Source: a virus
IMG/VR virus record: IMGVR_UViG_3300035126_000631
Location: 10,044-74,043 of that record
DNA length: 64,000 nt
Direction: 5' to 3' (one strand)
Shown here piece after piece: positions 18,301 through 64,000 of the stretch; positions within the stretch are counted from its first letter, which is position 1; every line of letters begins with the position of its first letter. The position numbers and the translations under genes were made by a program. The notes below the pieces were generated by a model. It had not been told where the DNA came from and did no database searches. It saw only the letters and a list, made by a program, of their open reading frames with translations.

Positions 18301-21300
18301 ACCGGAACAAGCTACAGGCGACACGGTTCAGGTTGCAGAGAGCCGTGCCGTAGCTCAACCAAGTGGCCAAGATCCTGAGAAGAGCATACAGGAGCAACTC
18401 GCAGAGAAGAGGCAACAACTCGCAGAGCTTCGAGCAGTCAATCGCGAAGAAACTGGACGTAGACTTCTTCAATTAGCTGAAGCTCGTGGAGAAAACTTTT
18501 TTCAACTTCCGAAAAACCTTTCAAACAGCGAAGACCTATTGACTGTTTTAGAGTCGACGGGCGCTCGGTTTTCAATGGTCAACATGAGACCTCCGGAGCA
18601 GGTGGAGGCTGGAGAATCACGTGAGATCATCCTTGGCTCACGCAACTCTGTTGTCCTCGGCCGTCGTGCCCTCTACGAAAAAGAAAACGGAGAGGTCTCA
18701 TCCGGAGACGTTGTTCGTAAGACGAACAGCGCAGTATTCATCCAAGACGGCAAAGATGTTGTGAGAATCCCCGCGGAAAGAGTTGTCGGGATCGACGGGA
18801 CGATAATGATTAAAGAGGAACCCGATCCATTTGGTTCTGTCTGGCCCGGTAAAGTATGGGCTGTTGATGCTTCAGACGGAGATACCAATGCTATTGTCGA
18901 TTCCACGCGCATCTATCAAGGGTTGTATCAATGGGCTGCAAATACAGGGCAAAAGATTGTCCCAGACAGCGCAGGGACTTCGCCGACTGGAAGCTACCGT
19001 CGCAACGCACAGCAGATCTCTAGTGCTCTTCGCCTACAATCGGCTGAACACTTCATACCGACAGAAGCTCAGTTGGACTTAATGTTCCCTGAGATAAGCA
19101 CTGATTCAGAAAAAGTAACCAAATGGTTAGGCTCTACTTTAGAAGAGAAGGTCGGGGCTTTGGCACTGGCCGAAGTCGGCTTCGTTGAACAGCTTCTCCC
19201 TGATCTTGTCTCACTTAGTTATGACCCAAACACTGATAGCTTCTTGGGAGAAGGCACACCCATTAGTAGAGACGAAGCAGGAAAACGACTTGATAACCTC
19301 CTTGCGGACCCGGAAGAGCAAGACCCAACTGATCCTATCCGAATCGGAGAGGCAACTCTTGTCAGGTATCTTGCAGCGAGATCCGCGCTTCAAGGGAGCT
19401 TCAGAGCAGACGCTCCGGTCTTGCGCTCTGAATCTACTTCTTTAGACAAGATCGCCTACAGCCGTGCCGTCGGTCGCCCGTTCGCATCCGACACGGCGAC
19501 GACTTACAACGGCAAGACCTACACGCGCCCTGGGCTGATCTTCGGCGAGAACGCCAACCTCGATCCCCAGGCTACGGAACTGGTCTCCATCCTCAAGAGG
19601 GTGAAGCGTGCGGCCGAGCAGTATGCCAATCTCAAGGGGCGGGAACTCAATCGCCTCATCAAGAAGTATTACAAGGACGAGCCGGTTCCGACCGACCTTA
19701 TCAACGATGCGCTGGGTAACCTCGACAACCCGCTGACCGATCAGCAGTTCGACGAGATCAAGCGGCTTGAATTGACCGACCCCGAAGCGGCGGTAGCCAA
19801 GCGAATCGCTTACCTCGGGGAGAACCGCGCACGTTTCCGCACCGAGCGTCAGGCTCCGGCCTTGCTTGCCCTGCCGGAAGAACTGGCCGAGTTCCTGCGT
19901 GAGATCGGCGGAAGCCGCGAAACTCCGGGCGACCTTTATCGTCTGCAAGAGGAAGCCCTCAAGCTCGGTATTCCGAAAGGTGACATGGCGACGGCTTTCA
20001 CTGAGAACCTCGGCATCTACCTGACCCGTAGTTACAACGCCTTCATCGATCAAGAAGGATGGGAGCGCACGCTCCGCGCCGAAGACGCCGCGCTCGGCGA
20101 GCAGTCGCGCATGGGGCAGTTCCGTAATCAAATCCGTTCCACGTTGATCGGCCAGCGGGCCGACGATCTGCTGACCAAGGCCCAAGAAGAGGGCCGCACG
20201 CTCTCCCGCGCCGAAGCCGAACGCCGCGCCAAGGAAGGCACGACGACCGAAGAGGTCGATCAAATGCTGGAGAGCTACATCGCCTACACCAAGGAAGAGG
20301 CTTCCTCGGAATCCTTCTCCGGTCTGCGTCTGCCCGGTCGCCAGAACATCAAGAGCTTGGAGCAGCGCAAGCGGCTCTCCGACGCCCTGCGCGAGTTCTA
20401 CGGCCAAGTGGAGAACCCGGCGGTCAACTTTGTCACCAGCTACGCGAAACTTTCCTCGCTCGTCGCCAACCATAAGTTCCAGACCGAACTGAAAAACCTC
20501 GGACTGAAAGAAGGCTGGCTCTGGGATCAGGAGAAGAACGTCGGACAGCGTCCTCCTTCCGGATACGAGCGCATCGCCGCCGACAACGACAAGTCCCTCA
20601 AGGTCTTGGCCGGACTCTACGCCCGCTCGGATCTTGTCCGTGGCTTGCGCGAGACGTTCCCGCCGAACTCGATGGAAGCGGCCCAGTGGTGGCTGCATCC
20701 GTTTATGAAGCTCACCGGACTTTCGATGGGCCTAAAGACTGTCGGCTCGATGGTATCCCAGATCCGCAACTACTGGAGTAGCTACGCTCCGATCATTGCC
20801 GGCGGCAACATGACGATCGCCGACTGGTTCCGCCCTGAGTGGCGCAAGAATTGGAAGGAGGCGCATGAGGTCTCGATCGCCAACGTGTTCCGTAAATACG
20901 GCGGCGACCGCCAGAAGATGACCAATCGGATCAAACGCCTCTACGAACTTGGCGTGATGGGTGAGTCGCTAACGGTCGGTCTCCTCAACGACCTAACCCG
21001 CCTCGGGAAAGATGCCTCGATCAGCGACGAGCAGTTCTTCAACAACTTCGAGAAGATCCTCAAGAAGCCGGGTCGCCGGGTCTGGAATGCGACCAAGCAA
21101 GTCTGGGAGAAAGCCGAGCAAGTCTACGGCATGACCGACGACATTTTCAAAGTGCTCACCTACCTCTCGGAGTTCGACAAATACCAGAAGGTCTATCCGA
21201 ATATGTCGGAGTCCGAGCTTGAGAAGAAAGCATCCGACATCGCCCGTGACATCCACTGGACGTATTCCAAGGCTCCTGCGGCGGTCAATGAACTCAAGAA

Positions 21301-22468
21301 GTTCCCCTTCATCGCGCCGTTCGTTACGTTCACGACCGAGACGATCCGGATCACGGCCAACCTCGGCAAGCTGGCCATCAACGAGCGCAAAGAAGGCCAG
21401 CGCCTTCGCGAGCAGGGATTGCGTGAGAACAATGCGGAACTGGTGCGCCAAGGCGACGAGCTTCTCAAGATCAGCAACAAACGTATGCGTGGTATGGCGG
21501 CAGTCGCCTTCGGTCCGTGGGCCGTCGGTTCTTTAGCTATGACCGCAGCCGGATTCTCCGGAGACGATGAAGAAGACCTCCGCCAGTTCCTCCCCGATTG
21601 GCAGAAGAACAGCCAGATTCTAATCCTCGGCCGCAACGGCTCCGACATTAACTATGTCGATGTCTCCTACCTCGATCCCTTTGAGGTCTGGAAGAAGCCG
21701 ATGACTGCCTTCATGCGCGGGCTCGGGCGTTCTGAGAACGTCGAAGAGTTCTTCACCGAAGCGGTGGTCGGAGCAGCCCTCGAAGCCGCCCGCCCGTTCA
21801 CCAGTGAGCAGATTCTTTCCGGCGCAGTTATGGATGTGATGCGGAACCGTGATGCCAACGGCCGTCAGGTCTACAACCCGCAGGATACGGGCACGGCGAT
21901 CGCCACAGCGGTCGGTGCTAAACTCGGTTCGGCATTCACCCCAGGGACGATGGACACCGTCGATCGCATCTATAAGGCCAGCGCCGGACAGATGAGCGAG
22001 ACGGGTCGCGCCTACCAACCATTCAATGAATGGGGCTCGCTGGTCTTCGGTCAGCGTGTCAGCGCGGTCGATGCCGAACAAGCCCTTGGCTTCAAGGCTT
22101 CGCAGTTCCTCCGCGCCCGTCGGGATGCCCGCAGCATCTTCAACCGCGACTACCTCTCCCGTGGTTCACGTTCGGAGTCCGATGTAGTAAGTGCATACCA
22201 GCGCAGCAACGCGGGTCTCCGCGATGTGACCGAGCGACTCCGCCGTGAGTATATCGCCGCGCTTAATCTCGGCGTCTCACCCGCCAAAGCCCGCAGCGTT
22301 CTTCGCGCCTCCGGACTGGACCGCGACTCGGCCCGCATGATCTCGACGGGCATCTACCGCCGTCTCACCCCGAGCGAGGAGCAGGACCGCATGGCCGCAC
22401 CGGATCGCAAGCGTGCCGCCCGCCAAGCAATTGCCGAGACCCCGCAGCGCGAAGTCCTGTTCCCGTAA
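12383..22468 (+). CDS. large polyvalent / internal virion protein (zincin HExxH domain, GNAT-like insert, LPD38-like C-terminus)
   Basis: 3361 aa. Gly/Ala hydrophobic N-terminal helices, FLHELQH...LEEF zincin motif near 17490-17770, C-terminal LPDWQKNS..YVDVSYLDPF resembling LPD38. Confidence 0.75.
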   Translation: MAWYDDPEEVRRVTAEALGLGLEDPESAEEPDLGPRLSLNTVAPDESRAVEVTEKKWWEDPDAVEAAMREAGVAVAAPMRSKRSLTGEIGAGLERGTDQTQGLLYGFSGLLGQAIGVEELEQFGLENYARKMEEAAENQASIQDPTEDIDGLGDFGLYAAGIISEQLPQLLISLGGAGLGGAAAKTAAQRIIANEVAKRTAAGMAKNEAAKEVAQLVAQNALTAAGTAAKRGAVGGAYLANFGQIAGGSFGQMAQELGEGNAAQAAAFAAPGAALDTLGEVFVAGKFLKPLSQAQRAAVEGVKPLTLGRIGGGLAGGAASGSAVEGPTEYIQTGLEQAALGSADPNRTVGDVVMTPEAERERQIAAAAGATVGGLLGGAGGVVEVAFSPRTTEALRTKRQQQQTGSELPPEQSQEQEQQQEAPADEEWSEPITIQSRNEEYNNLEYRQNKAGQVWAFNVPEVSRFGAFAIPTKYGQGVLLNPAFEGASDIRSEVKAKLAEMADPEAFKAPPVTPPKKVEENLEDADLVEGEEVASNAEELAAAAERRRLRDQEILTRDLESAAATLARPQEDAKGFVDNLKEGDQVSVLTEDGEGNAFAIPMTFVRLNQNGQAQLRSEPDEDNKVATRLYDADEFNRITTRPAEQVAPAAATTGTGIKVSPLTAPIRPAAEGEQLSEAERAQNLLYFKDVEGSKIDDNLWINSARELGVPITPETTGAIAEQEIRNRFGVERTTTKQDDPASQVLMDALGPNPTRQKLESMTGTRWTGKGSKFTWMLPDKLGGKGIPVTTRLFNRKAPAEALPIPQRSTTRGFKPEEQGGTAPAAPDIQTTGPDLIAKSSAEFVGVRKGEKNELVSARPTRGQDNATYLQEVDTAADTTIRQMNYLGQPVLVTPETAQSLAEANQFWTEHEQRQKAGTAKVDRQPVRFYTQERSDKDGNRNTFITGVTYEGRTYRVGKTPQEFSVDRALTQRGAKSRRRGLGIYDPIRIASPSRIARSEAGMASAKTEAGDGPLTEALRGVQGRAAIAELNDAENAVYGFFDDKITSPILNIQDPAVTTEVRDTALETARGKVAAAFLKAKKANPSEKTKVLPGRQRTIGEKVSDKLIAYQEAKRGLAIQALRDKFRGLSEKATAAKAAARGTGAGKALKMSPQGAMNLITRARRGQKAGIPEAKRATRDEALTALQELVDFGALDQEKKDAQIRRILDKAEKFSEVDRDFMAEQIISELAEADKALATQQGRKYSRSTAEVAQDRRLVLSTFNLLNDSSIRSLNPYNIGNSALSAAKRTATRKGMTRDEVSLDDENQGAGDEVALKASQPDDKGRIDQAKLAERGKRVGVEDAEGGEIAPFTNNIEEALNLMDELPDSDRDLFLRYAGMEIERQAGERSQTNQPLSEVDRLWAGRIKSYLDGKINRSQLEYFRNEERRLVERTTPRATPAELTNLRRGVSNEAALSGVAESRAARTPDTAPTGRAERVVGSPADPAGTVQESTAGQTGGRGVQPTPRRTRAVAAAAQRDFAGAILGLDEAETAALPQGTVDRVYQSYLATFDGVLAEQSNNPLTASAAPAADTVTADGKKMFERFAAARLNPNQQRAAIIRSNMAQAYRAGLFDEDPVVSAINKIATDKTQPMNLRLMAKEFVKNAKRGVRFDRVVLDIGRFTKPGNKQTTWAGLFSLTPEGAPVVSINLDNLHDKNSVPLTFLHELQHVVIRDKVRRAIPLTRAEEQALARLEDLRSQAVIAAARQQGIEVGATPNVNALAERLYALTDPNSTQSGAAVDNRRLAGLVNLEEFVIEMIGNPDMVRLLSELGFGEARTDGKRFSLTGALRNAWNAVVELITGAKVDPTSPLAMAFKDSWTVNFGTARNPNITEIKASKRLADRQQAQTRQQYVEGEIEARDMAGTTRDRNRIMQEITGPADTQTEAMRSSMLDAARNMTEDQWVAAARAQGFDFVDPGAVYRQARAEAVQAAPEQATGDTVQVAESRAVAQPSGQDPEKSIQEQLAEKRQQLAELRAVNREETGRRLLQLAEARGENFFQLPKNLSNSEDLLTVLESTGARFSMVNMRPPEQVEAGESREIILGSRNSVVLGRRALYEKENGEVSSGDVVRKTNSAVFIQDGKDVVRIPAERVVGIDGTIMIKEEPDPFGSVWPGKVWAVDASDGDTNAIVDSTRIYQGLYQWAANTGQKIVPDSAGTSPTGSYRRNAQQISSALRLQSAEHFIPTEAQLDLMFPEISTDSEKVTKWLGSTLEEKVGALALAEVGFVEQLLPDLVSLSYDPNTDSFLGEGTPISRDEAGKRLDNLLADPEEQDPTDPIRIGEATLVRYLAARSALQGSFRADAPVLRSESTSLDKIAYSRAVGRPFASDTATTYNGKTYTRPGLIFGENANLDPQATELVSILKRVKRAAEQYANLKGRELNRLIKKYYKDEPVPTDLINDALGNLDNPLTDQQFDEIKRLELTDPEAAVAKRIAYLGENRARFRTERQAPALLALPEELAEFLREIGGSRETPGDLYRLQEEALKLGIPKGDMATAFTENLGIYLTRSYNAFIDQEGWERTLRAEDAALGEQSRMGQFRNQIRSTLIGQRADDLLTKAQEEGRTLSRAEAERRAKEGTTTEEVDQMLESYIAYTKEEASSESFSGLRLPGRQNIKSLEQRKRLSDALREFYGQVENPAVNFVTSYAKLSSLVANHKFQTELKNLGLKEGWLWDQEKNVGQRPPSGYERIAADNDKSLKVLAGLYARSDLVRGLRETFPPNSMEAAQWWLHPFMKLTGLSMGLKTVGSMVSQIRNYWSSYAPIIAGGNMTIADWFRPEWRKNWKEAHEVSIANVFRKYGGDRQKMTNRIKRLYELGVMGESLTVGLLNDLTRLGKDASISDEQFFNNFEKILKKPGRRVWNATKQVWEKAEQVYGMTDDIFKVLTYLSEFDKYQKVYPNMSESELEKKASDIARDIHWTYSKAPAAVNELKKFPFIAPFVTFTTETIRITANLGKLAINERKEGQRLREQGLRENNAELVRQGDELLKISNKRMRGMAAVAFGPWAVGSLAMTAAGFSGDDEEDLRQFLPDWQKNSQILILGRNGSDINYVDVSYLDPFEVWKKPMTAFMRGLGRSENVEEFFTEAVVGAALEAARPFTSEQILSGAVMDVMRNRDANGRQVYNPQDTGTAIATAVGAKLGSAFTPGTMDTVDRIYKASAGQMSETGRAYQPFNEWGSLVFGQRVSAVDAEQALGFKASQFLRARRDARSIFNRDYLSRGSRSESDVVSAYQRSNAGLRDVTERLRREYIAALNLGVSPAKARSVLRASGLDRDSARMISTGIYRRLTPSEEQDRMAAPDRKRAARQAIAETPQREVLFP

Positions 22469-32729: not shown

Positions 32730-33233
32730 CTATTTGGTTAGTTCGGTGACGACGTAATCGTTCTTCACTCGGGAGTCCTTGAGGATGTCGCGGATGTCGT
32801 CCTTGGTGAACGCAGTCGTGGCATACGCTTGCACTTGGTAGTCGTCACCCTCCGAAGGATGAATCCACGCAGACAAGCGGTGCTTGTATCCCTGCCGGAT
32901 CATCTTGGCATCCAACGCCGCTTGCTCCTTGGCTTTCTTCGCTTCGATCTTGGCCCACTCGCGTTGGAACTTTGCGGCCCGCTTGGCGTAGCTCTTCTCC
33001 TTGCGCTCCAACTTGGCGATGCCTTTGCCGTCGATGAACTCGGCAAGCAACTCTTTGGCTCGCTTGTTGAAGTCCTCCTTGTCGATGGTCTTGTCGCGCA
33101 GGAACTCGGACTCGGCATTACAAGCGCCATTACGGAGCGCGACTTTCAACTGCAAGCCGTAGCCCGCATACATATTGGAACATGGGCTGATCTCGTAGTA
33201 AACGGACTGCCCTTTGCGTGTGTATTTCTTCAT
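32730..33233 (-). CDS. early hypothetical protein
   Basis: 167 aa, strong RBS. Confidence 0.65.
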   Translation of the reverse strand: MKKYTRKGQSVYYEISPCSNMYAGYGLQLKVALRNGACNAESEFLRDKTIDKEDFNKRAKELLAEFIDGKGIAKLERKEKSYAKRAAKFQREWAKIEAKKAKEQAALDAKMIRQGYKHRLSAWIHPSEGDDYQVQAYATTAFTKDDIRDILKDSRVKNDYVVTELTK

Positions 33234-33263
33234 GTGTTTTCCTTTCGTTGTCCGGTGATCGGA

Positions 33264-33536
33264 CTAATCATTGGTGATAGTGGTTTTCGGTGTGACGCCT
33301 TCGTTCTCCATCCACGCAAACAAGCGGGGTTCGAGGTCGGCGAGTTTGTCGGAGATGAACGAGTCGTTCTCGAGGACGAGCATATATTTGCCGTTGTCGG
33401 TCTCCTCGATGATGTAGTTGGCATACGGCTCCACCGGATCGTGGATGCCGTTGTAAACCCATGCGACCATTGGGCCATCAGGGTTCTTGAACTCGTCCTT
33501 CGGGAACGTGTGCAGTTGTTTCGGGTATGTTTTCAT
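33264..33536 (-). CDS. early hypothetical protein
   Basis: MKTYPKQ; its TAG stop lies inside a palindrome copy. Confidence 0.6.
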   Translation of the reverse strand: MKTYPKQLHTFPKDEFKNPDGPMVAWVYNGIHDPVEPYANYIIEETDNGKYMLVLENDSFISDKLADLEPRLFAWMENEGVTPKTTITND

Positions 33537-33859
33537 TTGACCTCCCATTTGATTTCTTCAGTTAGCTTCACGACTTCCGACCAATCGTTCGTCGCAAGCA
33601 GTGTCTTCATCTCGTTCTCACCAGCGTGAGGAGTGAGCAGCACTACGGCATAGCGAAACCCTTGGTCGCCGTTCTCGCGTAGTGACGGGTCTTTGTAATC
33701 GACGAAGACCATGAGCGTCTTCGGGTGAACAGCACCCGCGTCGATCTCTCGTGCGATACTCGGACACGCATCGTGGCTCCACGACGAGTCGTTGAATCCT
33801 TCCAACTCTGGAAGGGTGTCGTCGTAATCAGGGAACATTACTTTGTATTTTGGTTTCAT
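33533..33859 (-). CDS. early hypothetical protein
   Basis: MKPKYKV..FNDSSWSHDACPS. Confidence 0.65.
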   Translation of the reverse strand: MKPKYKVMFPDYDDTLPELEGFNDSSWSHDACPSIAREIDAGAVHPKTLMVFVDYKDPSLRENGDQGFRYAVVLLTPHAGENEMKTLLATNDWSEVVKLTEEIKWEVK

Positions 33860-33861
33860 AT

Positions 33862-34227
33862 TCAGTTTCCTTTCTGTGGTAGGTTTGCTTCTTCGATCCC
33901 CAGCCAAGACCAACGCTCCAAGGTGCGCTTGTATCCGGTGGGCTTTTCTTTCGTGCTGCTCAAGCTGGCGATGATGCTGTCGGCATACTCGCACAGCGTG
34001 TCGGTGTCGGTGTCGATGGGTAGCCCTGTGCAGTAGGACGCATCGTCCAGTCCCTCCCAATCGCTGTTGGCGTTTTCGCGCCAGTCGATTGAGAAGCGCA
34101 AGAGCGGCGTATCGTCTGGATCTTCATCGTTGTAGTCGCCGCTCCATCCCTCGCCGATGTCCTCCCAAACGAAGCGGATGTTGTCTTTGATTACTTCGAT
34201 GTCGGTGAATGGTGGATATGTTTTCAT
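33862..34227 (-). CDS. early acidic protein
   Basis: EDIGEGWSGDYNDEDPDDTPLLRF..DDASYCT; strongly acidic. Confidence 0.65.
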   Translation of the reverse strand: MKTYPPFTDIEVIKDNIRFVWEDIGEGWSGDYNDEDPDDTPLLRFSIDWRENANSDWEGLDDASYCTGLPIDTDTDTLCEYADSIIASLSSTKEKPTGYKRTLERWSWLGIEEANLPQKGN

Positions 34228-34243
34228 ATTCAGTTTCCTTTCT

Positions 34244-34519
34244 TTAGTTGTTGAGTTTGGGATGCTGCTGCACCCACTTCAGTTCCTTGTGCGCCTTACT
34301 CATCTCAAGCATGACGCACAGTTTCCGCCACGCCTTGCGGGCATGGTCGTTGGCAATACCGAATTGCCTCTCGTCGAGAGCGTGCGAGGCACGCTCCATC
34401 TCCGCATCGGCACAATCGAAGTGCTCCACGATGCACGCTTCATGCTGCATGATGCGGTAATCCAGCCACGGGATCATCGTGCCGCCCGTCTCGATCGGCT
34501 TGAGTAGTGTCCTGCTCAT
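34244..34519 (-). CDS. early hypothetical protein
   Basis: 91-aa ORF immediately downstream of a palindrome copy. Confidence 0.55.
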   Translation of the reverse strand: MSRTLLKPIETGGTMIPWLDYRIMQHEACIVEHFDCADAEMERASHALDERQFGIANDHARKAWRKLCVMLEMSKAHKELKWVQQHPKLNN

Positions 34520-34542
34520 AGGTCAGTTGTCCGGTGACCGGA

Positions 34543-35661
34543 CTACACGATGCCGTCGAGAAGACGCTGGCTCTGCGGGATGAAGCTGCTCATACCCTGC
34601 AACTGTTCGAGTTCCTCTTCCGCCGTCAGATCGACCTCGCGCATCGTGGCGTAGGTCGCCAGATCGTCGTCGAGGTTGTGCTGCGTCAGACCAATGTCCT
34701 CGGAACGTGCGGCCAAGCCGTCATACTTTCCGCTCGGCACTGTGACTGTGCTGTATGCACCTTCGGACTTCTTCTCGAAGCGGAACTCCGAGAGCTTGGG
34801 CTGCGAACCTCGGGGGCCGGAAGCCCATGAGGTGTCGATGGGGGCAAGGCTGCGACCGAGGCTGGCCGAAGCGTATTGCGACTCGCGGCTGGTCGTGTCG
34901 CCGTGCAGCCAGCGACTCACCTTGGGATCGCCGCCGTTCTTCGGGAACTCCAACCATGACCAGTCGTCGATGGCGAAGGCTTCGAGCGACTTGCAACGCC
35001 ACGCATCGCCGATCGCTTCGACAATCTCCGGCTTCGTGCCGAAGATCCAGCGACCTTTCTTGGTGATGCCAGCATACAACGACGCCATCGAATCGACGGC
35101 GACGATGAGCTTGCCGCTCGGGGCGAGGGCGAGGAACGCAGCGTAGCCCGTGATGTGCATCATGGCTTCCCGCTGTTTCTCCGGATCGCCAGCGTTGTCG
35201 GTCAACGCATAGAGCAAGTGCTGCGAATCGCACGTTGCCTTGTTGTGGTGCTTGGTCTGCTTGCCGTGCCAAGTGACCACGCCATTGTGGGCCAACGACC
35301 AGCCGTCATGCCGGAACGGGTGCGTGTTGCCAAGGTTCACGGCACACGTTGCAGTGCGTCCGTGGACGATGGTGGACTTCATCCGGTTGTAGTATCCGGT
35401 CTGCTCGAACCGCTTGCTGGCGGCGAAGGCGGAGAAGCCGTCTCCCGCGAGCTTGGACAACTGGGGCAACGCATCGAGCGTGCGGAAGTCATCGGGTTTC
35501 ACATAGCGACCGCGCAGACCATTGGGTCCGGCTTGGGCGAAACCGAAGCCGTGACGCTCGGTTCTGCCGATTGCTTCTGCCGCTGCGACAAGGGCTTTGT
35601 CGGCGGAGTGTCGGGTCAAAGGCGAGGCTTTGCTCGCTGTCCATCCTGCTAATTTACACAT
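34543..35661 (-). CDS. class II (Ntn) glutamine amidotransferase
   Basis: N-terminal Met-Cys, HGFG, HGRTAT, NTHPF, LAHNGVV and CDSQ. Confidence 0.9.
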   Translation of the reverse strand: MCKLAGWTASKASPLTRHSADKALVAAAEAIGRTERHGFGFAQAGPNGLRGRYVKPDDFRTLDALPQLSKLAGDGFSAFAASKRFEQTGYYNRMKSTIVHGRTATCAVNLGNTHPFRHDGWSLAHNGVVTWHGKQTKHHNKATCDSQHLLYALTDNAGDPEKQREAMMHITGYAAFLALAPSGKLIVAVDSMASLYAGITKKGRWIFGTKPEIVEAIGDAWRCKSLEAFAIDDWSWLEFPKNGGDPKVSRWLHGDTTSRESQYASASLGRSLAPIDTSWASGPRGSQPKLSEFRFEKKSEGAYSTVTVPSGKYDGLAARSEDIGLTQHNLDDDLATYATMREVDLTAEEELEQLQGMSSFIPQSQRLLDGIV

Positions 35662-35716
35662 GGTATTTGTTTCCTTTCGTTATGGTTGATGTTGTTTGTC
35701 CGGTGATCGGACTAGT

Positions 35717-37048
35717 TCACTGATCGTCCGTGCTGCAAACGGCAGTCACGGCTTGGCGCGGCATCCGGCGGTAGCCGGACAAGCGCGTGTCGGAAGCGTC
35801 GAACTGACGCACGAACTCGTCGCACTTGACCGCCCCGTAGCGGTCAACACTGCGCGAGGTGTTGTTGATGGTGCGGACTTTGGCCTTCATCGCTTTGATG
35901 ATGTCCTTGAGCGTCTCCGGCTCATGGATCGCGGCCCACCGATAGAACGATGCCCACGCTTGCGGCGCGGTTTCGTTGGTGACGGACGCCTCGGGCGTCA
36001 CGTTGTCCTCGCTCCACCGGGCGATGGCTTGCATGAGGGCGGCACGCATCCGCCACTCGCTCGGCTTGCGACTCGTCGGCCACAAGCGGACTTCGATCGT
36101 GCCGAGTCGCTCGAACTGGGCGGCACTGACCGCCGAATACTTGCGACCCAAGGCGTCATCCCAATTCTCGCAGCAAGCGTTGACCGCACACCAACGAGAG
36201 CGGCGGCGGGTCAACGGCGCAAGATACCGGAACCATGACAAGTGGTAACGCAACGAGTAGTAGACGGCTTGGCCGTAGTCCTCGGCACGTTTGCAGTTGA
36301 TGTGGATGTGACCGCCGTTGCGCTCGATCGAACCGAGGTTGCTGACCAAGTTGCAAGCGACATCGGGCAACTTCTGCGTGATGCGGAAGCGGATCTCATG
36401 CTGACCGCCGCCATCGCGACCGACATCCCAGTAGGGTTTCTGGTAGCTGCGGATGCGGTTGGTGCTGACGCTGCGTCCGGTCGGCGTGGTCTTGTAACCA
36501 TGCAAGCCAGTCGCTTCCAACTCACCACTGCACTCGTAGAGCGGAAGCCGATCCCAATACTCCGGAGTCAGAGGCTCGGGGAGCATCTGCTTGATCTTGG
36601 ACTTCTCGATCGACTTGAGGAACTGACCGACTCCCTTGACGACCTCACGCTGATTTGCAGATCCGAACCAGTCGTTGCCGAAGTGACAGCGGATGCGCTC
36701 GATGAGATCCTGCAACGTGCCGCCATCCTTGCGGAAGGTGCGACGATACAGCTTGCGATGCCGGAGACATCCGACGATGACCGAAGCCACGCCGCGCAGA
36801 TGCCGACGCTGACGCTCGGCCCGCTCGTCGCGGTAACGCCGATAGACTCGTTCATAAGCCCTCTTGAGCACCGCCTTGTCGTCGTAATTGAGGACGTAGT
36901 AGTTCGGTGCCGAGTCGAGCGTGACCGGACTGTCCTTGGACTTCGCCCAGTTGTTGCGGAGATACCAATAGGCATACCGACCATCCTCCGAGAGATGCAT
37001 CGGCTTCGATGCGACCTCGGCCAGTTGTAGTGTGGAGTTATTACTCAT
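35717..37048 (-). CDS. putative amidoligase (COOH-NH2 ligase type 2)
   Basis: GELE, RDGGGQHE, GGHIHIN, KYSAVS and GTIEVR motifs in canonical order, adjacent to the GATase. Start MSNNSTLQ follows an RBS. Confidence 0.75.
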   Translation of the reverse strand: MSNNSTLQLAEVASKPMHLSEDGRYAYWYLRNNWAKSKDSPVTLDSAPNYYVLNYDDKAVLKRAYERVYRRYRDERAERQRRHLRGVASVIVGCLRHRKLYRRTFRKDGGTLQDLIERIRCHFGNDWFGSANQREVVKGVGQFLKSIEKSKIKQMLPEPLTPEYWDRLPLYECSGELEATGLHGYKTTPTGRSVSTNRIRSYQKPYWDVGRDGGGQHEIRFRITQKLPDVACNLVSNLGSIERNGGHIHINCKRAEDYGQAVYYSLRYHLSWFRYLAPLTRRRSRWCAVNACCENWDDALGRKYSAVSAAQFERLGTIEVRLWPTSRKPSEWRMRAALMQAIARWSEDNVTPEASVTNETAPQAWASFYRWAAIHEPETLKDIIKAMKAKVRTINNTSRSVDRYGAVKCDEFVRQFDASDTRLSGYRRMPRQAVTAVCSTDDQ

Positions 37049-37123
37049 AGGTCTAACTTTCCTTTCATGTGTTGTTTGGTTGTTGCTTGTCCGGTGATCG
37101 GACAACTCTGTCCGGTTTGAACA

Positions 37124-37161
37124 AGCCATCCGCCCCCTCGCATGGAAGGGGCGGTGCGGCT
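37124..37161 (-). terminator. GC-rich hairpin, possible terminator or processing site
   Basis: AGCCGCACCGCCCC...GGGGCGGATGGCT stem with a weak U tract. Confidence 0.35.
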
Positions 37162-37171
37162 TGCACAGTTA

Positions 37172-37531
37172 TTACTTGTCGGCGAACTGACCGACGAACT
37201 TGCGAGGGTTGATCCACTCGCCGTGCGGCATCTCGATGGCGTCATGCCATACCAACTCGAAGTCGTGGCCTCGGTCGTAAGTGTTGACCTTGGTCACGCC
37301 CCGATCACGGAACACCGAGAACGATGCGCGGCGTCCGACTCCATTGAGCCGTTCGCGTGTCGTCACAGTGTCCCATCCAGCCAACGTGATCTCGATGTCG
37401 CCGTTGTCTGCATGACGCGCAATCGCATTGCCATGCAGCCAGATCGTCGTGCCATCGGTTCGGGTATTGCCGCACTTGCGGGGACGCCGATTGAAGAAGG
37501 CGTCAGTCACTTCTCTCGTTACTTTTCTCAT
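37172..37531 (-). CDS. early hypothetical protein
   Basis: IWLHGNAIA..ITLAGWDTVTTRERLNG, a recurrent phage early-gene type. Confidence 0.7.
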   Translation of the reverse strand: MRKVTREVTDAFFNRRPRKCGNTRTDGTTIWLHGNAIARHADNGDIEITLAGWDTVTTRERLNGVGRRASFSVFRDRGVTKVNTYDRGHDFELVWHDAIEMPHGEWINPRKFVGQFADK

Positions 37532-37583
37532 ACTGTTTCTCTCTTTCTAAATGTCCGGAATTCCGGACAAGGTTGTGGAGTTA

Positions 37584-37682
37584 TTACTTGGTGATCTCGA
37601 TGAGGAGCCAGACAGCAACGAAGCACAAGGCCGCGAAGCTGAAGAGCAATTCGTCGAGTTGATTCGGGGTGGGCCGTTTCAT
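37584..37682 (-). CDS. small membrane peptide (32 aa)
   Basis: MKRPTPNQLDELLFSFAALCFVAVWLLIEITK*, flanked on both sides by TAATAACTCCAC. Confidence 0.45.
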   Translation of the reverse strand: MKRPTPNQLDELLFSFAALCFVAVWLLIEITK

Positions 37683-37694
37683 CGTGTGGAGTTA

Positions 37695-37910
37695 TTATCC
37701 GAGTTGAGCCACCTTGGGAAGCAAATCCGCAAAGGGGTTGAACGTGAGCGGATTAGCCGCCGCCCGATAATCGTTGCCGCCGATCAGATCGACCGCAGCG
37801 TTGCGCTTCTCCTCAACCGAAAGACCACGAGCGTTGCGCTCGGATGTCCGGTCAAGTCTGTAGTCTGTTTTGCTGGCACTCGCCAACAGGATGTGGATGG
37901 TTCGTTTCAT
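37695..37910 (-). CDS. early small protein
   Basis: MKRTIHIL..., downstream of a palindrome copy. Confidence 0.45.
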   Translation of the reverse strand: MKRTIHILLASASKTDYRLDRTSERNARGLSVEEKRNAAVDLIGGNDYRAAANPLTFNPFADLLPKVAQLG

Positions 37911-38103
37911 CTGTCTGTTTTGATTCCTTGTCCGATCACCGGACAAGTCTCGCCGTATTGGGCAAGGGACAACGCAAGACGGATGGAACGTCTTGCGCTG
38001 ATACTTTGCTCACCTCGGACATGATGCACCGCAACGGGTCGGACGTTGCATGGTGCATGGTTCATGGTTCACGCTGCGGGGTTCGCGTTGTCCGGTCACC
38101 GGA

Positions 38104-38505
38104 CTATTTGCGGAACAAGCGAGCGACGACAGCGCGATACAGCTTCTTGTCTCCGCCTACGAGTTTGAGCAGCGCGGCTTCCGCCTTGGGAAGCATGGCG
38201 TCGATCTTCTCGCTGGCCTCTGCACGGCTCTTCGACTTGGCGCGACGAGTGATGCCGTAGGATTGGAGCAACTCACTGATGCGCTGTTTCGCGTAGCCAT
38301 TCGCCTTGAGCGTGGCCGTGACCTCTGCAACGTCGATCGCTTCGCGATTGTCCTTGATGAACGCGCAAAGCGTTTCGCGTTGCATTGTCGCCGCTTGGGT
38401 CAGGGTTTCGATTTGATGGATCTCGCGAGCGATTGCATCGTTCACGCTGTCCTTCGTTTCTGCCACGCGGTAGTTGATGCTGATGGTGATGTGGTTCTTT
38501 TTCAT
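38104..38505 (-). CDS. first gene of the early operon, basic putative DNA-binding protein
   Basis: 133 aa, basic and helical, bracketed by palindromes at 38090 and 38535. Confidence 0.6.
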   Translation of the reverse strand: MKKNHITISINYRVAETKDSVNDAIAREIHQIETLTQAATMQRETLCAFIKDNREAIDVAEVTATLKANGYAKQRISELLQSYGITRRAKSKSRAEASEKIDAMLPKAEAALLKLVGGDKKLYRAVVARLFRK

Positions 38506-38639
38506 ATACTGATCTTTCTTTCTGTTTGGTTGTTGTCCGGTGATCGGACAGCGTCTTGCTGCCCTTTCCGGTTCATTAATAAGTGACCAGCAGCGCGATT
38601 TACTCTGTTAGGAGAGGGGAAAATGTGCGATTATTACGG

Positions 38640-39242
38640 ATGCCCAGACCGCCCCTTTCTGTAGACTGGCAAGCAATTCGCGGACTCTACCTTCAAGGAG
38701 TCGAACCTTTGACGTTAGCGAATAAGTTTGCAATCAAGATAAGCACCTTGAATTCAAGGATTTACAGAGAGAAGTGGCATGAGATATTGCAAGGGGAAAA
38801 GAAAACGAATGAGAAGGCGAGAGAGGAAAGCGTAGCAATCGCAAGGGACATCTGGACAGAGAGACGAGAGACAATCCGAGAGCGCATCCATCTCATAGGT
38901 GATCGAATGACCCTTGCAGCTTCGCAACTCTCTGAAGATCAACTAATTAACAAAGCAGACAAGATCAAGATTGCGACAGAGATTGCTGGCAAATCAGTAG
39001 GCTTGGACAGAGAGGAAGACCGGAACCAAGTAAACATCGCCATCTTGGGCGCAATAGGCTCAAAATCAGGTGCTTATGATGATATTGTGCAAGGTGAGGT
39101 CTGGTCAGAATCGGGTCGAAACCTACCCGCTAACAGTGTAGAGCACACGGAATCCGAATCCGTGAACACCACCACCCAACCCACCACTGTCCCCCTCGAC
39201 CCAGCCGCGCCACTGTATGATAATATAAATAATGGGTTCTAA
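38640..39242 (+). CDS. putative terminase small subunit
   Basis: DWQAIRGLYLQG..LTLANKFAIKISTLNSRIYREKW N-terminal HTH followed by helices; TerS-like by inference. Confidence 0.6.
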   Translation: MPRPPLSVDWQAIRGLYLQGVEPLTLANKFAIKISTLNSRIYREKWHEILQGEKKTNEKAREESVAIARDIWTERRETIRERIHLIGDRMTLAASQLSEDQLINKADKIKIATEIAGKSVGLDREEDRNQVNIAILGAIGSKSGAYDDIVQGEVWSESGRNLPANSVEHTESESVNTTTQPTTVPLDPAAPLYDNINNGF

Positions 39243-39318
39243 ATTTTTTGCCCGTTTTTAGAATTATTAACTTTTAGGGGAGGGGAGAGCCGGATCGGAC
39301 GGAACTCCCCCTGGCGCG

Positions 39319-39456
39319 TTAGAGAAGCGAACACAGATACTTCAGGAAACGACGCCACCGGAAAGAAGTCACGACAGCCTTCAGGTCACCCCGCTCGAAG
39401 TATCCAAGCCCGCCGTAGGGTCCGTAGACCAAGCCAAGATCGTTCGATCGATACAT
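39319..39456 (-). CDS. stand-alone 45-aa peptide
   Basis: MYRSNDLGLVYGPYGGLGYFERGDLKAVVTSFRWRRFLKYLCSLL*, with a perfect AAAGGAGGTGA SD and a downstream hairpin. Confidence 0.6.
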   Translation of the reverse strand: MYRSNDLGLVYGPYGGLGYFERGDLKAVVTSFRWRRFLKYLCSLL

Positions 39457-39522
39457 ACACATTCACCTCCTTTCATCGGCGCGTAATAAAGCACGGATCA
39501 GGCCAAGTGCTATAGTAATACC

Positions 39523-39596
39523 GGCGGGGTGCTGCCTGTGTCACCGTATGGTGCGCCGAAAGCAGCCCGATGCGGCTAAAACCCGGCCCCGCCTCC
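39523..39596 (+). ncRNA. tRNA-sized structured RNA candidate
   Basis: GGCGGGG/CCCCGCC closing stem, internal GCTGC/GCAGC and CACC/GGTG stems, upstream TGCTATAGT extended -10. Confidence 0.35.
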
Positions 39597-39601
39597 TCTT
39601 T

Positions 39602-39823
39602 ATGAAAGCCACCCTGGAGTTCAACCTACCCCAAGACGACGAGGCCTTGACCGACGCCCGAAAGGGCTCCGATTGGAAGTGGGCGGTGTCAGACCTCTCG
39701 GACTACCTCCGGAACCAGATCAAGCACGTCGACCACTCGGCCGAGGAATACCGCATCTTGGAGGCCGTCCAAGAGCGCATCTCTGGGATCCTTGATGACC
39801 GAGGGCTCAACCTTTACGAATGA
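39602..39823 (+). CDS. hypothetical phage protein
   Basis: MKATLEFNLPQD...LRNQIKH. Confidence 0.7.
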   Translation: MKATLEFNLPQDDEALTDARKGSDWKWAVSDLSDYLRNQIKHVDHSAEEYRILEAVQERISGILDDRGLNLYE

Positions 39824-39975
39824 CCTTCTGGCCTCTACTGATAACGACACTGCTTTATCTCATTACCGCGGCCGGCTGGTATCGAGAGGGTAATGTAGGA
39901 CTTGCGATAGCCTTCGCAGGTTATGCCGCAGCGAACCTCGGGTTTCTGTATATAACAATGTTCGGACAGCCTTAA
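39820..39975 (+). CDS. small two-TM membrane protein (51 aa)
   Basis: MTFWPLLITTLLYL...GLAIAFAGYAAANLGFLY, ATGA-coupled. Confidence 0.6.
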   Translation: MTFWPLLITTLLYLITAAGWYREGNVGLAIAFAGYAAANLGFLYITMFGQP

Positions 39976-39997
39976 AGGCTCGATTTCGGCCGATTAG

Positions 39998-40313
39998 GTG
40001 GGAACTCACTTGTCAGTTCCCCTAAGTTCCCACCCTGAGTTCCCGAGGTTAAGTCGCTGATTTACAGTATACTTACGACAAACGGGAACTGAGGAACTTA
40101 CCCCTATATCTTTTCTTAAAGAAAAAGTATATATACCCCGTAAGTTCTCCCCCCACGGTCGCCGGGGGCGGCACCCCAGTCCCCCGAAAACCACCATGCC
40201 TCTACCCCCCAAAATGAGTTCCTCAGTTCCCTTTTACCCTAAACCCCTAACCATGAACCACTTACCCTTGGGAACTTAGGGTGGAACTAAGAACATGAGT
40301 TCCCCAGTTCCCC
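39998..40313. other. putative replication origin (iteron-like AGTTCC(C) repeats around an AT-rich core)
   Basis: About 12 AGTTCC/GGAACT copies in both orientations with a central TATATCTTTTCTTAAAGAAAAAGTATATATA, in a non-coding gap between convergent operons. Confidence 0.6.
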
Positions 40314-40476
40314 TGCAGGCTGTAGCCCTGTATCATGTTCCTCTGTAGCCCGTATTTCGACACATGAACCCTGTCATGTCGAAGCCGTCGACAGGTTGCC
40401 TAGACCCACCGGAGCATACCAAAAGGCCGCTTTGTTCAAGCCAACCTTGAACTGCTGCGCAAAAGCTACTCCGCGG

Positions 40477-40902
40477 TCAGATCCACCGGACCACGCAGCC
40501 CGCTTCATGGAACATGGTGCGTGCTGCATGGAACGAGTCAGCCCACCTGCAGGCGTCGGGCACTGTGGGGCAGATGACTTCAGTGATCCCCGCCTGGATG
40601 ATGGCGGCGGCGCACTGAGCGCATGGTTGGAAGGGGTAGACCACGATTGAGCAACCGTGGAGCGGCTCGCGGGCAGCAAGGATCGCGTTAAGCTCTGCGT
40701 GGACTGTGTAGAGGAGTTTCTGGTCTCGGTCGGCCAATCGTGCCGGATCGTCGGAAACGGCCCTGGGGAGGCCGTTGAAGCCTACGCTGGCCACCGAGCG
40801 GTCGGGTCGGATAATAACCGCGCCGACTTGGGTCGAGTCTTTTGACCAGCCGGCAACGTGTGCGGCTAAGTTAATAAACCTCGCGGTCCACTTGGCGTTC
40901 AT
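40477..40902 (-). CDS. dCMP deaminase
   Basis: SKDSTQVGA, GFNG, HAELNA and PCAQC zinc motifs. Confidence 0.92.
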   Translation of the reverse strand: MNAKWTARFINLAAHVAGWSKDSTQVGAVIIRPDRSVASVGFNGLPRAVSDDPARLADRDQKLLYTVHAELNAILAAREPLHGCSIVVYPFQPCAQCAAAIIQAGITEVICPTVPDACRWADSFHAARTMFHEAGCVVRWI

Positions 40903-40908
40903 ATTTTA

Positions 40909-41009
40909 GGCGGCGGTGGCAGGACTCGACACCTGCTTTTGTCACATATTCTCGTGTTATTTTGTGACGCTCCGCTGTCCGGCCGCGTGTCCTTCCACGC
41001 CGCACCGCC
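40909..41009 (-). ncRNA. tRNA-like RNA lacking a canonical anticodon arm
   Basis: Acceptor GGCGGTG/CACCGCC, D-arm GCGT-GGAAGGAC-ACGC, T-arm GCAGG-TGTCGAGT-CCTGC, and a 48-nt non-canonical middle. Confidence 0.6.
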
Positions 41010-41013
41010 ATGA

Positions 41014-43371
41014 TTAAAATGGATCATTCGACTCCGGCTCCGCCGTCTCCGGGGTCGGCTTGGTCAGCCGGTATTTGTGGAGCTTGGCCTTGCCGCAGCG
41101 TTTGGCGATCAACTCGACGTTCGGGTCACCTTGGGTCTGGAGTTCGGCGAGGCGGCGTCCGAGGACGCGAACCGGCCACTCACGGGTCAGGGAGACGTTG
41201 TCGAAGACATCGTTGAAGGATTGGTGCAGTTCGACCGCGGTTCCTTCCCACGGTTCGTCGGTGCCACGGCGCTCCCACCAAGCGTTGAGCGTGTCGCGCA
41301 ATTCGGCGGTGCGGCTTGAGGCTTCGATCTTCTCGCGCACTTCTTGGGCGATGTAGCTACGGATGAAGTAGCGGTTGGCTGCGTCGATGTATTTCGGTGG
41401 GATATCCCACGCCTTGAGCCAAGCGAGGAGGGCGGGGAGTTCGGATTCCACGTCCTTGAGTTCATCGACCGTCGGGCCTTCCTCGAAGGTTCTCATAGCC
41501 AGCGCGATGATCTTGTCCTCATTCGAGATGTTGAGCGCCGGCACGGCCTTGATTGACACCGGATCGTCGTTGGCTGCGATGACCACACGGCCGCGCCACT
41601 CGACCATGATGGGGGTCAGGTATTTCTCGTGGTATTTATGGGTGCCGTGGGCGACGAGCTTCTTGATTGCGCTCGCGTAGCGGTTGAGTTGCGCCTCGGA
41701 TTCCGCGGCACGAGAGTCATCGATGATGGCCAGTGGCGACTGGAAGAGGTCGGCGTTGAATCCGTTGCCTTCGCCCGAGACGATCGAGGAGAGATCCGCG
41801 TAGCCGCCCATTGCGGGCTTGAGGAACTTCTCGATGAAGAAGGTCTTATAGCAGTGGACCGGACCGACCAGGATCATGGCTTGGCCCATGCAGAGTTTGC
41901 CACGTTCCGCGGATTCGTAGAACCGTTTGAACCACGCGAGGAAGATGTCGCGGTATTCATCGGAGGCGAAGACGTTGTCGAGGATGGCCGCGTAGCGTGG
42001 GAAGCCTTCGCCCCAAGCCCCGGCGGTCTCGGCCGCTTTGACGATATGGACGTTCTTGGCGGTGTTGAGGTATTTCTTGCCGCCTTCGAACCAAAGTTCG
42101 TTCTTGTTGTAGAGCGACGGTCCTGCACCGTCCACGCGACGGTGTTCGCGAATGAAGGCTTTGGCGCGGTCCATCGGTGACATGGCGGCACCCTTCGGGG
42201 CGCGGTCACTGAACCCGCGGCATTTGAGTTCGCTGGACAGCATCGCGACCATTTCGTATCGCCAAATCCCGTCGTCGGCTTTCATAAAGAAGGTTTTGCC
42301 GTCGTAATATATGTCGTCAAACTGTCCGCTCTTGTTCGCATTGGTGGACGGTTTGGACACCTCTGGTGAGGTGCTATCCCCGTTTTCGGCGGCTAAAGCG
42401 TCATTTGTGCGGTCCTCGGTAAGGGGGGCGGCAATTTGACCCCCTCCTTCTAAACCCGTGGATTTCGACGGGTTCACGCGCCCAGCCTCCGGGTTGAAGT
42501 AGATGAGGGTCTGTGCCTTTCCGGTGTCTTTCCTCATGCACCCTGGCACACGAGTCAGGCGCACGGCCGACATGGCAGCGGGATCGGCACCGAGCGGGAC
42601 GAGGACATCGGCAATCTCGGAGGCTTTCTCCAGATACTCGGCACGGTTTTTAGTATTTACGCGGACGAGAGCGTGAGCCGACTTCGAGCCGGAGGTCGTG
42701 ACCGAGACGATCGGGAGGTTGAGATTGGAGAGCACACGTAGCCATAGTTCGAGATCGACCGAGTCGGATTCGATGAGGAGGTATTCGTAGGCCACGAGAT
42801 TCTCTTCGGCCCGGCGGGACTTCTTGCCGAGGCGCTCGATCGCTTTGAATTGACCGTCGACCGGATTGACCATGATCCATGCGCCCTCTGTGTTGTTGGC
42901 GATGATTTGATCGACGGCCAGATCCGGCACCTTGTCGTGCCACACCAGCTTCCCCTGAGTCTGCTGATCGACGAAAACGATGTTATGCTTGCCGCCGTAG
43001 AGACGACGGAGGAACTCGGAGGTCGAGACATCGGCTGTCGGGATGGGTGAGGAGGCTTTGAAATCCTCGATCGAGAGCGGGCCTTCTTTGGTCAGTTCGG
43101 TCAGACGATCCTCATCCTTCTCGCGCTTCAGTGAAACCTTCGGGCGCGGCTCGATGAGACCCTCGGCCTCGGCGCGGACGTTGGCGAGCGTGTCGACGAT
43201 CTCGCGTGGCTGTGGGTCACGCTGGAGGTGGTGCGTGATCCATTGCTCGATGAAGGCATCGTCATAGGCGTTAGCAACCAGCGCGTGCGCTGCGCCGAAC
43301 ATCCATGTGTGGCATCCTTGGCCGGAGGTTGGGCAGGGGTTGAGTCCGAGTTCTTCAGGTGTAGGTGACAT
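41014..43371 (-). CDS. primase-helicase (RepB-like AEP primase + SF3/NrS-1-like helicase)
   Basis: YLLIESD, TSGSKSAHAL and RLTRVPG primase motifs; degenerate Walker A GPVHCYKT, IIDD and IAAN. Confidence 0.8.
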   Translation of the reverse strand: MSPTPEELGLNPCPTSGQGCHTWMFGAAHALVANAYDDAFIEQWITHHLQRDPQPREIVDTLANVRAEAEGLIEPRPKVSLKREKDEDRLTELTKEGPLSIEDFKASSPIPTADVSTSEFLRRLYGGKHNIVFVDQQTQGKLVWHDKVPDLAVDQIIANNTEGAWIMVNPVDGQFKAIERLGKKSRRAEENLVAYEYLLIESDSVDLELWLRVLSNLNLPIVSVTTSGSKSAHALVRVNTKNRAEYLEKASEIADVLVPLGADPAAMSAVRLTRVPGCMRKDTGKAQTLIYFNPEAGRVNPSKSTGLEGGGQIAAPLTEDRTNDALAAENGDSTSPEVSKPSTNANKSGQFDDIYYDGKTFFMKADDGIWRYEMVAMLSSELKCRGFSDRAPKGAAMSPMDRAKAFIREHRRVDGAGPSLYNKNELWFEGGKKYLNTAKNVHIVKAAETAGAWGEGFPRYAAILDNVFASDEYRDIFLAWFKRFYESAERGKLCMGQAMILVGPVHCYKTFFIEKFLKPAMGGYADLSSIVSGEGNGFNADLFQSPLAIIDDSRAAESEAQLNRYASAIKKLVAHGTHKYHEKYLTPIMVEWRGRVVIAANDDPVSIKAVPALNISNEDKIIALAMRTFEEGPTVDELKDVESELPALLAWLKAWDIPPKYIDAANRYFIRSYIAQEVREKIEASSRTAELRDTLNAWWERRGTDEPWEGTAVELHQSFNDVFDNVSLTREWPVRVLGRRLAELQTQGDPNVELIAKRCGKAKLHKYRLTKPTPETAEPESNDPF

Positions 43372-62266: not shown

Positions 62267-62427
62267 AATAGACTATGGCCAACCTTTCGACATATTACCC
62301 CGCTCCGATCACCGCCGCCGATCTCGGCTTGGGTGCGGGCAGCAACGCGACCTTCGGCTCGCTCACCGCCAACAACGGCACGCTCACGGCGTCCGCGCCT
62401 GTGCTGGATTTGGCGCAGACTTGGAAC
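61382..62427 (+). repeat. identical 60-bp direct repeat shared by two fibre genes
   Basis: 61382-61441 equals 62368-62427 (ANNGTLTASAPVLDLAQTWN). Confidence 0.9.
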
Positions 62428-63522: not shown

Positions 63523-63526
63523 TCTT

Positions 63527-63835: not shown

Positions 63836-63998
63836 GCAAGTCACACTCACGGAAGCCGAGGCCAAGGTCGTCATGCAGTGTCTCGACATTGCGACCAAAG
63901 CGGGCGGGTTGAACGCAGCAGCAGGCATCTTGCCGGTGGCGATGAGTATCGAAAAACAACTCACCGCGACCGAGGAGCCTCAGTTGCAGGAGTCCTGA
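63828..63998 (+). CDS. small hypothetical protein
   Basis: MSKQVTLTEAE..LDIATKAGG, overlapping the upstream stop. Confidence 0.55.
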   Translation: MSKQVTLTEAEAKVVMQCLDIATKAGGLNAAAGILPVAMSIEKQLTATEEPQLQES

Positions 63999-64000
63999 TC

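Follow-up and report, generated by a model that had tools for sequence, protein, structure and literature searches.

In phages P1 and phiC31 a single regulator acts at many sites scattered through the early regions, namely the C1 operators and the conserved inverted repeats, respectively. Lambdoid phages possess two nut sites, each comprising a boxA and a GNRA-like loop, and their N protein is unstructured and carries an N-terminal arginine-rich motif, while integron attC sites are imperfect palindromes of 57-141 bp with R and L boxes and an adjacent IntI integrase. The 'stoperators' of cluster A mycobacteriophages are many intergenic sites whose motif tracks the repressor (L5 gp71, TipsytheTRex Rep), which reads the DNA with a helix-turn-helix (HTH) and a C-terminal domain and has been proposed to block elongation (PMC9283540, PMC6550527). 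Stoperators are asymmetric 13-mers that are bound by a monomer, number more than 20-30, are spread genome-wide and depend on orientation (PMC9283540, PMC6550527). The promoter-early stem-loop (PeSL) elements of T4-type phages are composites of ∼100 bp, made up of a sigma-70 promoter and a terminator stem-loop, and are demonstrated crossover points (PMC2839356). Here we analyze a stretch of 64,000 nucleotides ('the window') comprising bases 10044-74043 of the 74,043-bp IMG/VR virus record IMGVR_UViG_3300035126_000631 (CheckV completeness 100%), in which seven copies of the palindrome TTGTCCG-N5-CGGAC and one variant with an N6 centre form eight sites within 33248-38551, at the start of a minus-strand operon. 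Our comparison with related phages suggests that these palindromes are probably the cognate sites of gene product 1 (Gp1), the protein of 133 amino acids (aa) encoded by the first gene of that operon, and that the closest concept for such a system would be the repressor-stoperator system of the cluster A mycobacteriophages.

On the coding strand, that is, the minus strand, the palindromes have the form (T/C)(T/A)GTCCG-N5-CGGACAA, and the next ATG follows 7-38 nt downstream, usually behind an A/C-rich leader with a GAAAGGA-type ribosome-binding site (Table 1, where the lower coordinate of each N5 copy is its start; the cores lie two bases further on). The scan yielded 10 strand-hits against 0.03 expected from shuffled sequences, none of which got to 10, and the cluster described in an earlier, sequence-only reading of the window, seven copies plus the N6 variant (ATGTCCGGAATTCCGGACAA, 37551-37570), is thus borne out. 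The same reading had noticed no copy elsewhere. This holds for the 10 kb of the record beyond the window, since a scan of the whole 74,043 bp revealed no further copy there, and has to be amended for the window itself, where one additional arm-matching copy, TTGTCCGCCAGACGGAC, is found at 388-404 inside a 562-aa structural gene; its centre is unrelated, and it is probably there by chance. The TAG stop codon of the upstream gene is supplied by four copies (33264, 34543, 35717 and 38104) and not by three as had been counted, and most copies, though not all of them as claimed, are located at gene boundaries: the copy at 37928 resides in a noncoding-looking stretch of ∼140 nt with no clear protein-gene boundary. 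Both spacer orientations are indeed present, as is evident from the centres on the coding strand (ATCAC four times; GTCAC, GTGAC and GTGAT once each), and the gene for the 133-aa protein, a 443-aa gene and a GATase gene are each flanked by copies, again as had been described. While the label of the latter gene is supported by a family match (PF13522), the label 'amidoligase' given to the 443-aa gene is not, since no Pfam or PHROG match was obtained for it. The sites split the first 5.3 kb of the gene array into units of one to four genes. Next to them neither a U-tract terminator nor a sigma-70 promoter was detected, and the promoter-like matches in the region (4 versus 3.7 in shuffles) include none that adjoins a site.

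Relatives were collected by use of two anchors, the 443-aa gene and a 200-aa HTH-like protein, which yielded about ten viral contigs; three more, short and of metagenomic origin, came from a search with Gp1. The co-variation described below is based on seven site types from about thirteen contigs. Conservation in related phages, another point raised in the sequence-only reading, was checked on these contigs and is confirmed: each site-bearing relative carries 4-9 copies of a palindrome type of its own, located at the same junctions and at the beginning of the same operon. The types are GTCCG-(A/G)T(C/G)A(C/T)-CGGAC (the phage studied here, hereafter G000, as well as L141 and L157), GTCCG-TGCCA-CGGAC (G001, L158 and L159), GTCCG-GAATTC-CGGAC (G002), GTCGG-AATT-CCGAC (L143), GAGTCGC-AAAC-GCGACTC (L144 and L146), AGTCCG-TTAA-CGGACT (L150) and TTGTTCG-CATC-CGAACAA (L152). 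In G000, G006, G007 and G008 the sites are limited to the first 4-6 kb of one operon, and in three relatives rated as 97-100% complete the type-specific sites occur only in that operon. Changes in the arms between types are compensated, and the centres are uniform within a genome. This is particularly evident when G000 is compared with G002: the two share 92.7% nucleotide identity over 4.6 kb, with GATase proteins that are 99.5% identical, and nonetheless have differing centres at four of the five shared junctions. Such differing centres amid near-identical flanks are beyond what neutral drift would produce, which implies a trans-acting partner.

Gp1 is the candidate for this partner. A homologue is encoded in every site-bearing relative, including the distant L152 (E 2e-7), whereas three contigs that keep the anchor gene (L148, L149 and L154) lack both gene 1 and the repeated palindrome. 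Alignment of ten Gp1 proteins reveals a modular architecture, in which the chain can be split after a conserved ...YGI motif to leave a C-terminal part of ∼45 residues. For pairs of phages with the same site type this C-terminal part exhibits 82-98% identity and the N-terminal part 56-91%, while for pairs with different types the C-terminal identity is at most 60%, with N-terminal identities of up to 87%. L158 represents a natural domain swap: its Gp1 has an N-terminus 85% like that of G000 and a C-terminus like that of G001, and all of its sites are of the G001 type, including one upstream of the gene, which argues against mere linkage of the 3' end of the gene to site 2. No such correspondence with site type is seen for the HTH region of the anchor protein. 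Of the four explanations offered in the sequence-only reading, the nearest to our result is that of operators that would silence the early operon in the lysogen, with either the 133-aa protein or the ribbon-helix-helix (RHH) proteins near int as candidate binders. The former remains a candidate, because the site type co-varies with its C-terminus and the sites co-occur with its gene; no such link was found for the RHH proteins.

Gp1 appears to consist of a conserved, HTH-like core (residues ∼45-93) and a variable C-terminal module of two helices (residues ∼88-133). Its AlphaFold model (pLDDT 77) comprises a long helix, two short helices surrounding the invariant motif ATLKANGY-KQRIS-LL-YGI, and a basic linker followed by a pair of helices at the C-terminus. 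With the full or the core-only model, searches of Pfam, PHROGs, PDB sequences, Foldseek and VIA-align returned nothing significant, and the ESM Atlas provided a weak lead to DUF3102 only. Between the core and helix 2-turn-helix 3 of the ArgR winged-helix domain there is a weak resemblance, seen in a profile match to PDB entry 1aoy (E 0.11) and in a comparison by hhalign (probability 50%, P 1.6e-4 over 30 columns); we consider it a lead only. A database search identified 101 homologues, all of them metagenomic and none annotated, in which at least 15 C-terminal clusters are combined with several N-terminal variants.

Provided that Gp1 is the reader, and it is on this proviso that the DNA and RNA levels are weighed against each other below, we tentatively prefer to regard the palindromes as duplex-DNA operators that would serve as distributed roadblocks in the manner of stoperators. 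Gp1 would bind as a dimer on double-stranded DNA, its core reading the conserved outer GTC...GAC and its C-terminal module setting the specificity for the inner part and the centre of the site, so that module and site type would be matched separately in each phage lineage. The site in the leader of gene 1 itself might then confer autoregulation, and the other sites, at the cistron boundaries of the first 4-6 kb, might act as roadblocks or insulators that shut down or silence variable early accessory genes. The comparisons show the non-random clustering of the sites, their conservation in relatives, the compensated arms, the co-variation with the C-terminus of Gp1 and the co-occurrence with its gene, whereas the binding by Gp1, its action at the DNA level and its effect on transcription are inferred. 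We count in favor of the DNA level that (i) five of the seven types are palindromic through the centre (chance 1/16 each), (ii) in the odd-length types the central base alone varies, and (iii) the conserved GTC and GAC are 11-13 bp apart in a site of 15-20 bp. Furthermore, the mismatches of imperfect copies, read on the mRNA strand, are more often A.C than G.U (7 to 2), while in two hairpins of the neighbouring leader (A and B; see below) the sense strand shows G.U (3 to 0); these numbers are small and the trend is suggestive. Finally, the TAG stop codon abuts the stem, and terminating ribosomes would thus melt an RNA hairpin. We also count the weak likeness of the Gp1 core to ArgR on this side.

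Several observations weigh against Gp1 as the reader or against its action on duplex DNA. Because the C-terminus of Gp1 is physically linked to site 2, the co-variation may be overstated, yet the type is the same at site 1 and at the distal sites. The AATT centre is kept at sites 2 and 3 of L143, and the lower stem there has undergone two to three compensated changes, a pattern that is easier to reconcile with a hairpin than with a fixed half-site. The asymmetric centres AAAC (12/12) and CATC (7/7) always point the same way relative to transcription, and all copies lie in one transcription unit, none of them in a clear promoter. Moreover, Gp1 matches no Pfam family and no solved fold, the likeness to ArgR is weak, and the PF01316 model found no match in the genome.

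When compared with the stoperators, the sites likewise occur in multiple copies in short intergenic spaces within operons (eight in G000, 4-9 in relatives), and their motif likewise co-varies with the binding protein, here a presumed one, by way of the C-terminal module of Gp1. The sites are, however, inverted repeats of 15-20 bp rather than asymmetric 13-bp sites, there are only 4-9 of them, confined to the first 4-6 kb of a single operon instead of genome-wide, and it is the product of the operon's own first gene, without detectable homology to gp71, that is presumed to bind them. As to the single orientation of stoperators, the AAAC and CATC types are always oriented one way, and two of the seven copies in G000 are flipped. 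P1 C1 and phiC31 share with the present case that one regulator would serve scattered sites in the early region; they differ in that their binders are lysogeny repressors, which are unrelated in sequence. If Gp1 does read the sites, it would constitute a compact and naturally modular type of protein-site recognition, in which one scaffold accepts at least 15 interchangeable C-terminal modules, each presumably with its own site of 15-20 bp. It would then be revealed how uncultivated temperate phages of ∼70 kb control or silence variable early accessory genes, and the stoperator idea would extend beyond actinophages to a palindromic form that is both confined to and encoded in one operon. Such a system might also turn out to be a source of orthogonal regulator-operator pairs for engineering, and a testable function would be assigned to a protein family presently devoid of annotation.

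The main rival, which we consider somewhat less likely, places recognition by Gp1 at the RNA level: the palindromes would be hairpins in an early polycistronic transcript, and Gp1 would control the cistrons behind each of them, by processive antitermination like lambda N with boxB, or in the manner of HK022 Nun or of the translational and stability regulators Mu Com and T4 RegA. It takes up an earlier suggestion of mRNA hairpins for processing, with the hairpins read by a protein rather than serving as RNase sites. The elements indeed fold into stable hairpins (-7.6 to -12.8 kcal/mol), their stem pairing is kept while the sequence changes, both between phages and within L143, their asymmetric loops have a fixed orientation, and every copy is intercistronic in one operon. 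The order of a site, gene 1, a second site and a structured leader with terminator-like hairpins recalls PL-nutL-N-tL1, and the type-specific co-variation of Gp1 is what one would expect of N and boxB. As with lambda N/boxB and HK022 Nun, the gene next to the first hairpin of the early operon, directly behind it, codes for a small basic protein, a stem of 5 bp carries a loop of ∼5 nt, related phages differ in the specificity of both protein and hairpin, and terminator-like structures follow downstream. On the other hand, the loops are mostly self-complementary (AAUU, UUAA, U-N-A, G-N-C), which is needless for an RNA loop, two of the seven G000 copies are flipped, and both the A.C variants on the sense strand and the abutting stop codons argue the same way. 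The tests that define N/nut failed: stems range from 5 to 9 bp, none of the loops (AUCAC/UCA, GCC, AAUU, UUAA, AAAC, CAUC) is GNRA-like, and a search for boxA (YGCTCTTWA, one mismatch) yielded 17 hits versus 32 expected, none adjoining a site. There are eight sites with mostly palindromic centres, and Gp1 is a folded helical protein that lacks an N-terminal arginine-rich motif and has its specificity in the C-terminus. No Rfam match was obtained at gathering thresholds for the window, nor at E<=1 for 33000-41100.

It is tempting to go further and to view Gp1 and the palindromes as a programmable 'punctuation' of accessory-gene arrays, although we regard this broader proposal as unlikely. A swappable module would read extruded DNA hairpins or nascent RNA at every cassette boundary, and would thereby insulate or time each cassette and limit which phages can exchange cassettes productively; the whole would represent an uncharacterized analogue of attC arrays or of N/nut, built on a new family of proteins whose specificity modules number at least 15.

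That the palindromes are mainly recombination linkers, short boundary sequences for the exchange of early cassettes like the PeSLs or, loosely, integron attC, appears improbable. Such a role, proposed in the sequence-only reading as a cassette-shuffling system, draws weak support from the gene content: the units between sites differ among relatives, with the GATase and 443-aa genes missing from G001 and the 167-aa gene present in G000 only, and several sites mark jumps in the per-gene identity of G000 and G002. Among 274 blastn breakpoints, 30 fall within 25 nt of a site, about twice the 15.7 expected for a uniform distribution, and PeSL-mediated shuffling provides a published precedent (PMC2839356), with which the present elements have in common that repeated stem-loops mark the boundaries of small variable early genes and that the gene content between them differs in close relatives. 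However, 89% of the breakpoints lie elsewhere, identity jumps also at junctions devoid of a site, and sites retain the type of the recipient genome even where the genes on either side have 93-99% identity to those of a phage with another type. With 15-20 bp (19 bp in G000) the elements are far below the size of attC or PeSL, and they lack the promoter part of the latter. No recombinase travels with the sites; the sole integrase of the phage is 14 kb away and matches an ordinary phage PHROG. Co-variation with Gp1 would also be left unexplained. The sites may nevertheless help exchange as short linkers, like PeSLs, without this being their main signature.

Hairpins that act independently of any protein, as 3' stabilizers, processing signals or attenuators comparable to repetitive extragenic palindromic (REP) elements or the RNase III sites of the T7 early region, are quite improbable. 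While the elements are stable, intercistronic and located immediately after stop codons, their stems, at 5-9 bp, do not reach the length that RNase III requires and are not followed by a U-tract; centres that are uniform per phage and different between phages with near-identical flanking genes require a partner acting in trans, and the elements are wholly missing from the relatives that lack gene 1. Template-strand DNA hairpin promoters for a virion-delivered RNA polymerase, as in phage N4, can be considered most improbable, because the location of short GC stems and AT-rich centres ahead of every early gene, the G.T kept on the template strand in imperfect copies and the presence of a giant 3361-aa virion protein (about the size of the N4 virion RNA polymerase) are offset by the fact that in sequence searches this protein matches only LPD37 and a structural PHROG, with neither RNA-polymerase similarity nor a PDB sequence match, by the variable distance to the ATG (7 to 38 nt), and by a co-variation with a small early protein, itself dependent on prior transcription, that such promoters do not explain. 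Protein-loading sites on first-entering DNA, also proposed earlier, find no support: in a relative that possesses terminal repeats, the operon begins about 7 kb from a genome end.

The arrangement of the phage genome was derived from simple codon-based gene calling and family scans, and is summarized together with the sites in Table 1.

Table 1. Palindromic sites, gene 1 and surrounding features of the window (positions in the window; site sequences are given on the coding strand).
Feature	Position	Strand	Remarks
Site 1, CTGTCCG-ATCAC-CGGACAA	38533-38551	-	in 134-bp divergent intergenic region, 27 nt upstream of gene 1 ATG; RNA fold -8.7 kcal/mol
Site 2, TAGTCCG-GTGAC-CGGACAA	38088-38106	-	TAG is the gene 1 stop codon
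Site 3, TTGTCCG-GTGAT-CGGACAA	37928-37946	-	full 7-bp arms; centre flipped relative to the majority
Site 4, N6 variant, TTGTCCGGAATTCCGGACAT	37551-37570	-	centre is the type used throughout by relative G002
Site 5, TTGTCCG-ATCAC-CGGACAA	37087-37105	-	upstream of 443-aa gene; extra half-site CCGGACA 4 nt upstream
Site 6, TAGTCCG-ATCAC-CGGACAA	35696-35714	-	TAG is the stop of the 443-aa gene; upstream of GATase gene
Site 7, TAGTCCG-GTCAC-CGGACAA	34527-34545	-	TAG is the GATase gene stop; next ATG 7 nt on
Site 8, TAGTCCG-ATCAC-CGGACAA	33248-33266	-	TAG is the stop of a 90-aa gene; upstream of 167-aa gene absent from G001 and G002
Gene 1 (Gp1)	38104-38505	-	133 aa, pI (isoelectric point) 9.8; first operon gene, bracketed by sites 1 and 2; proposed site reader
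Noncoding-looking stretch between sites 2 and 3	37947-38087	-	GAACCAT heptad repeats, hairpin A, hairpin B
Anchor gene, 200-aa HTH-like protein	38640-39242		divergent from the operon
Small gene island	38640-39975	+	
Long array of ∼45 mostly small genes	38505 down to 23051	-	
Structural genes		+	include 3361-aa virion protein at 12383-22468
Tyrosine integrase	52363-53577	-	match is an ordinary phage integrase PHROG; 14 kb from the palindromes
Replication block		-	helicase, family A polymerase, primase, dCMP deaminase

Comparison with cultured phages (INPHARED) at the nucleotide and protein levels brought up no close relative, whether the query was the region, the giant protein, the primase or Gp1, and the GTDB genomes contained no relative of the anchor protein; the phage group is one of uncultivated temperate phages of ∼70 kb. 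The first 2.3 kb of the record (genome bases 1-2317, outside the window) are 80-87% identical to its last 2.4 kb (window 61635-64000). The record probably runs past a single genome length, with two strain variants joined in it, in which case the true unit would be about 71.7 kb.

The same arm motif is also encountered in unrelated viral contigs, singly or in small operator-like clusters (L047:3638-3765, L120:12666-13915); L047 contains four copies of GTCCGGGAGACGGAC spaced by 33-44 bp. Loci of the L047/L120 type were considered as members of the same system and rejected, as no Gp1 homologue is encoded there. Two relatives with a distant anchor protein, L155 and L156, carry repeated hairpin pairs, ACTCAAC-attg-GTTGAGT and GAATCAGA-aggt-TCTGATTC, likewise with no Gp1 homologue, and these pairs may belong to another kind of boundary system.

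Directly after site 2, the GAACCAT heptad repeats (∼38050-38070, minus strand) vary from two to six copies among relatives and often extend into the next start codon without a Shine-Dalgarno sequence. They are followed, just upstream of site 3 and on the same strand, by hairpin A (CGCAAGACG...CGTCTTGCG, 37973-37997) and hairpin B (CTTGCC...GGCGAG, 37949-37966), both of which persist in eight relatives, where the changes on the sense strand are G.U or compensated, and which look like a structured RNA leader or an attenuator, with no match in Rfam. A strand-polarized junction motif, TAATAACTCCAC, is present directly upstream of site 4 and at neighbouring junctions (37575, 37686, 37032 and elsewhere), and constitutes a separate, genome-wide signal. 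In the divergent control region, the 11-mer AACAGAGTAAA (38599-38609, minus strand) is kept in relatives, but is reversed in L148, L149 and L154, which lack gene 1; it is a candidate operator of another regulator, perhaps of the 200-aa anchor protein.

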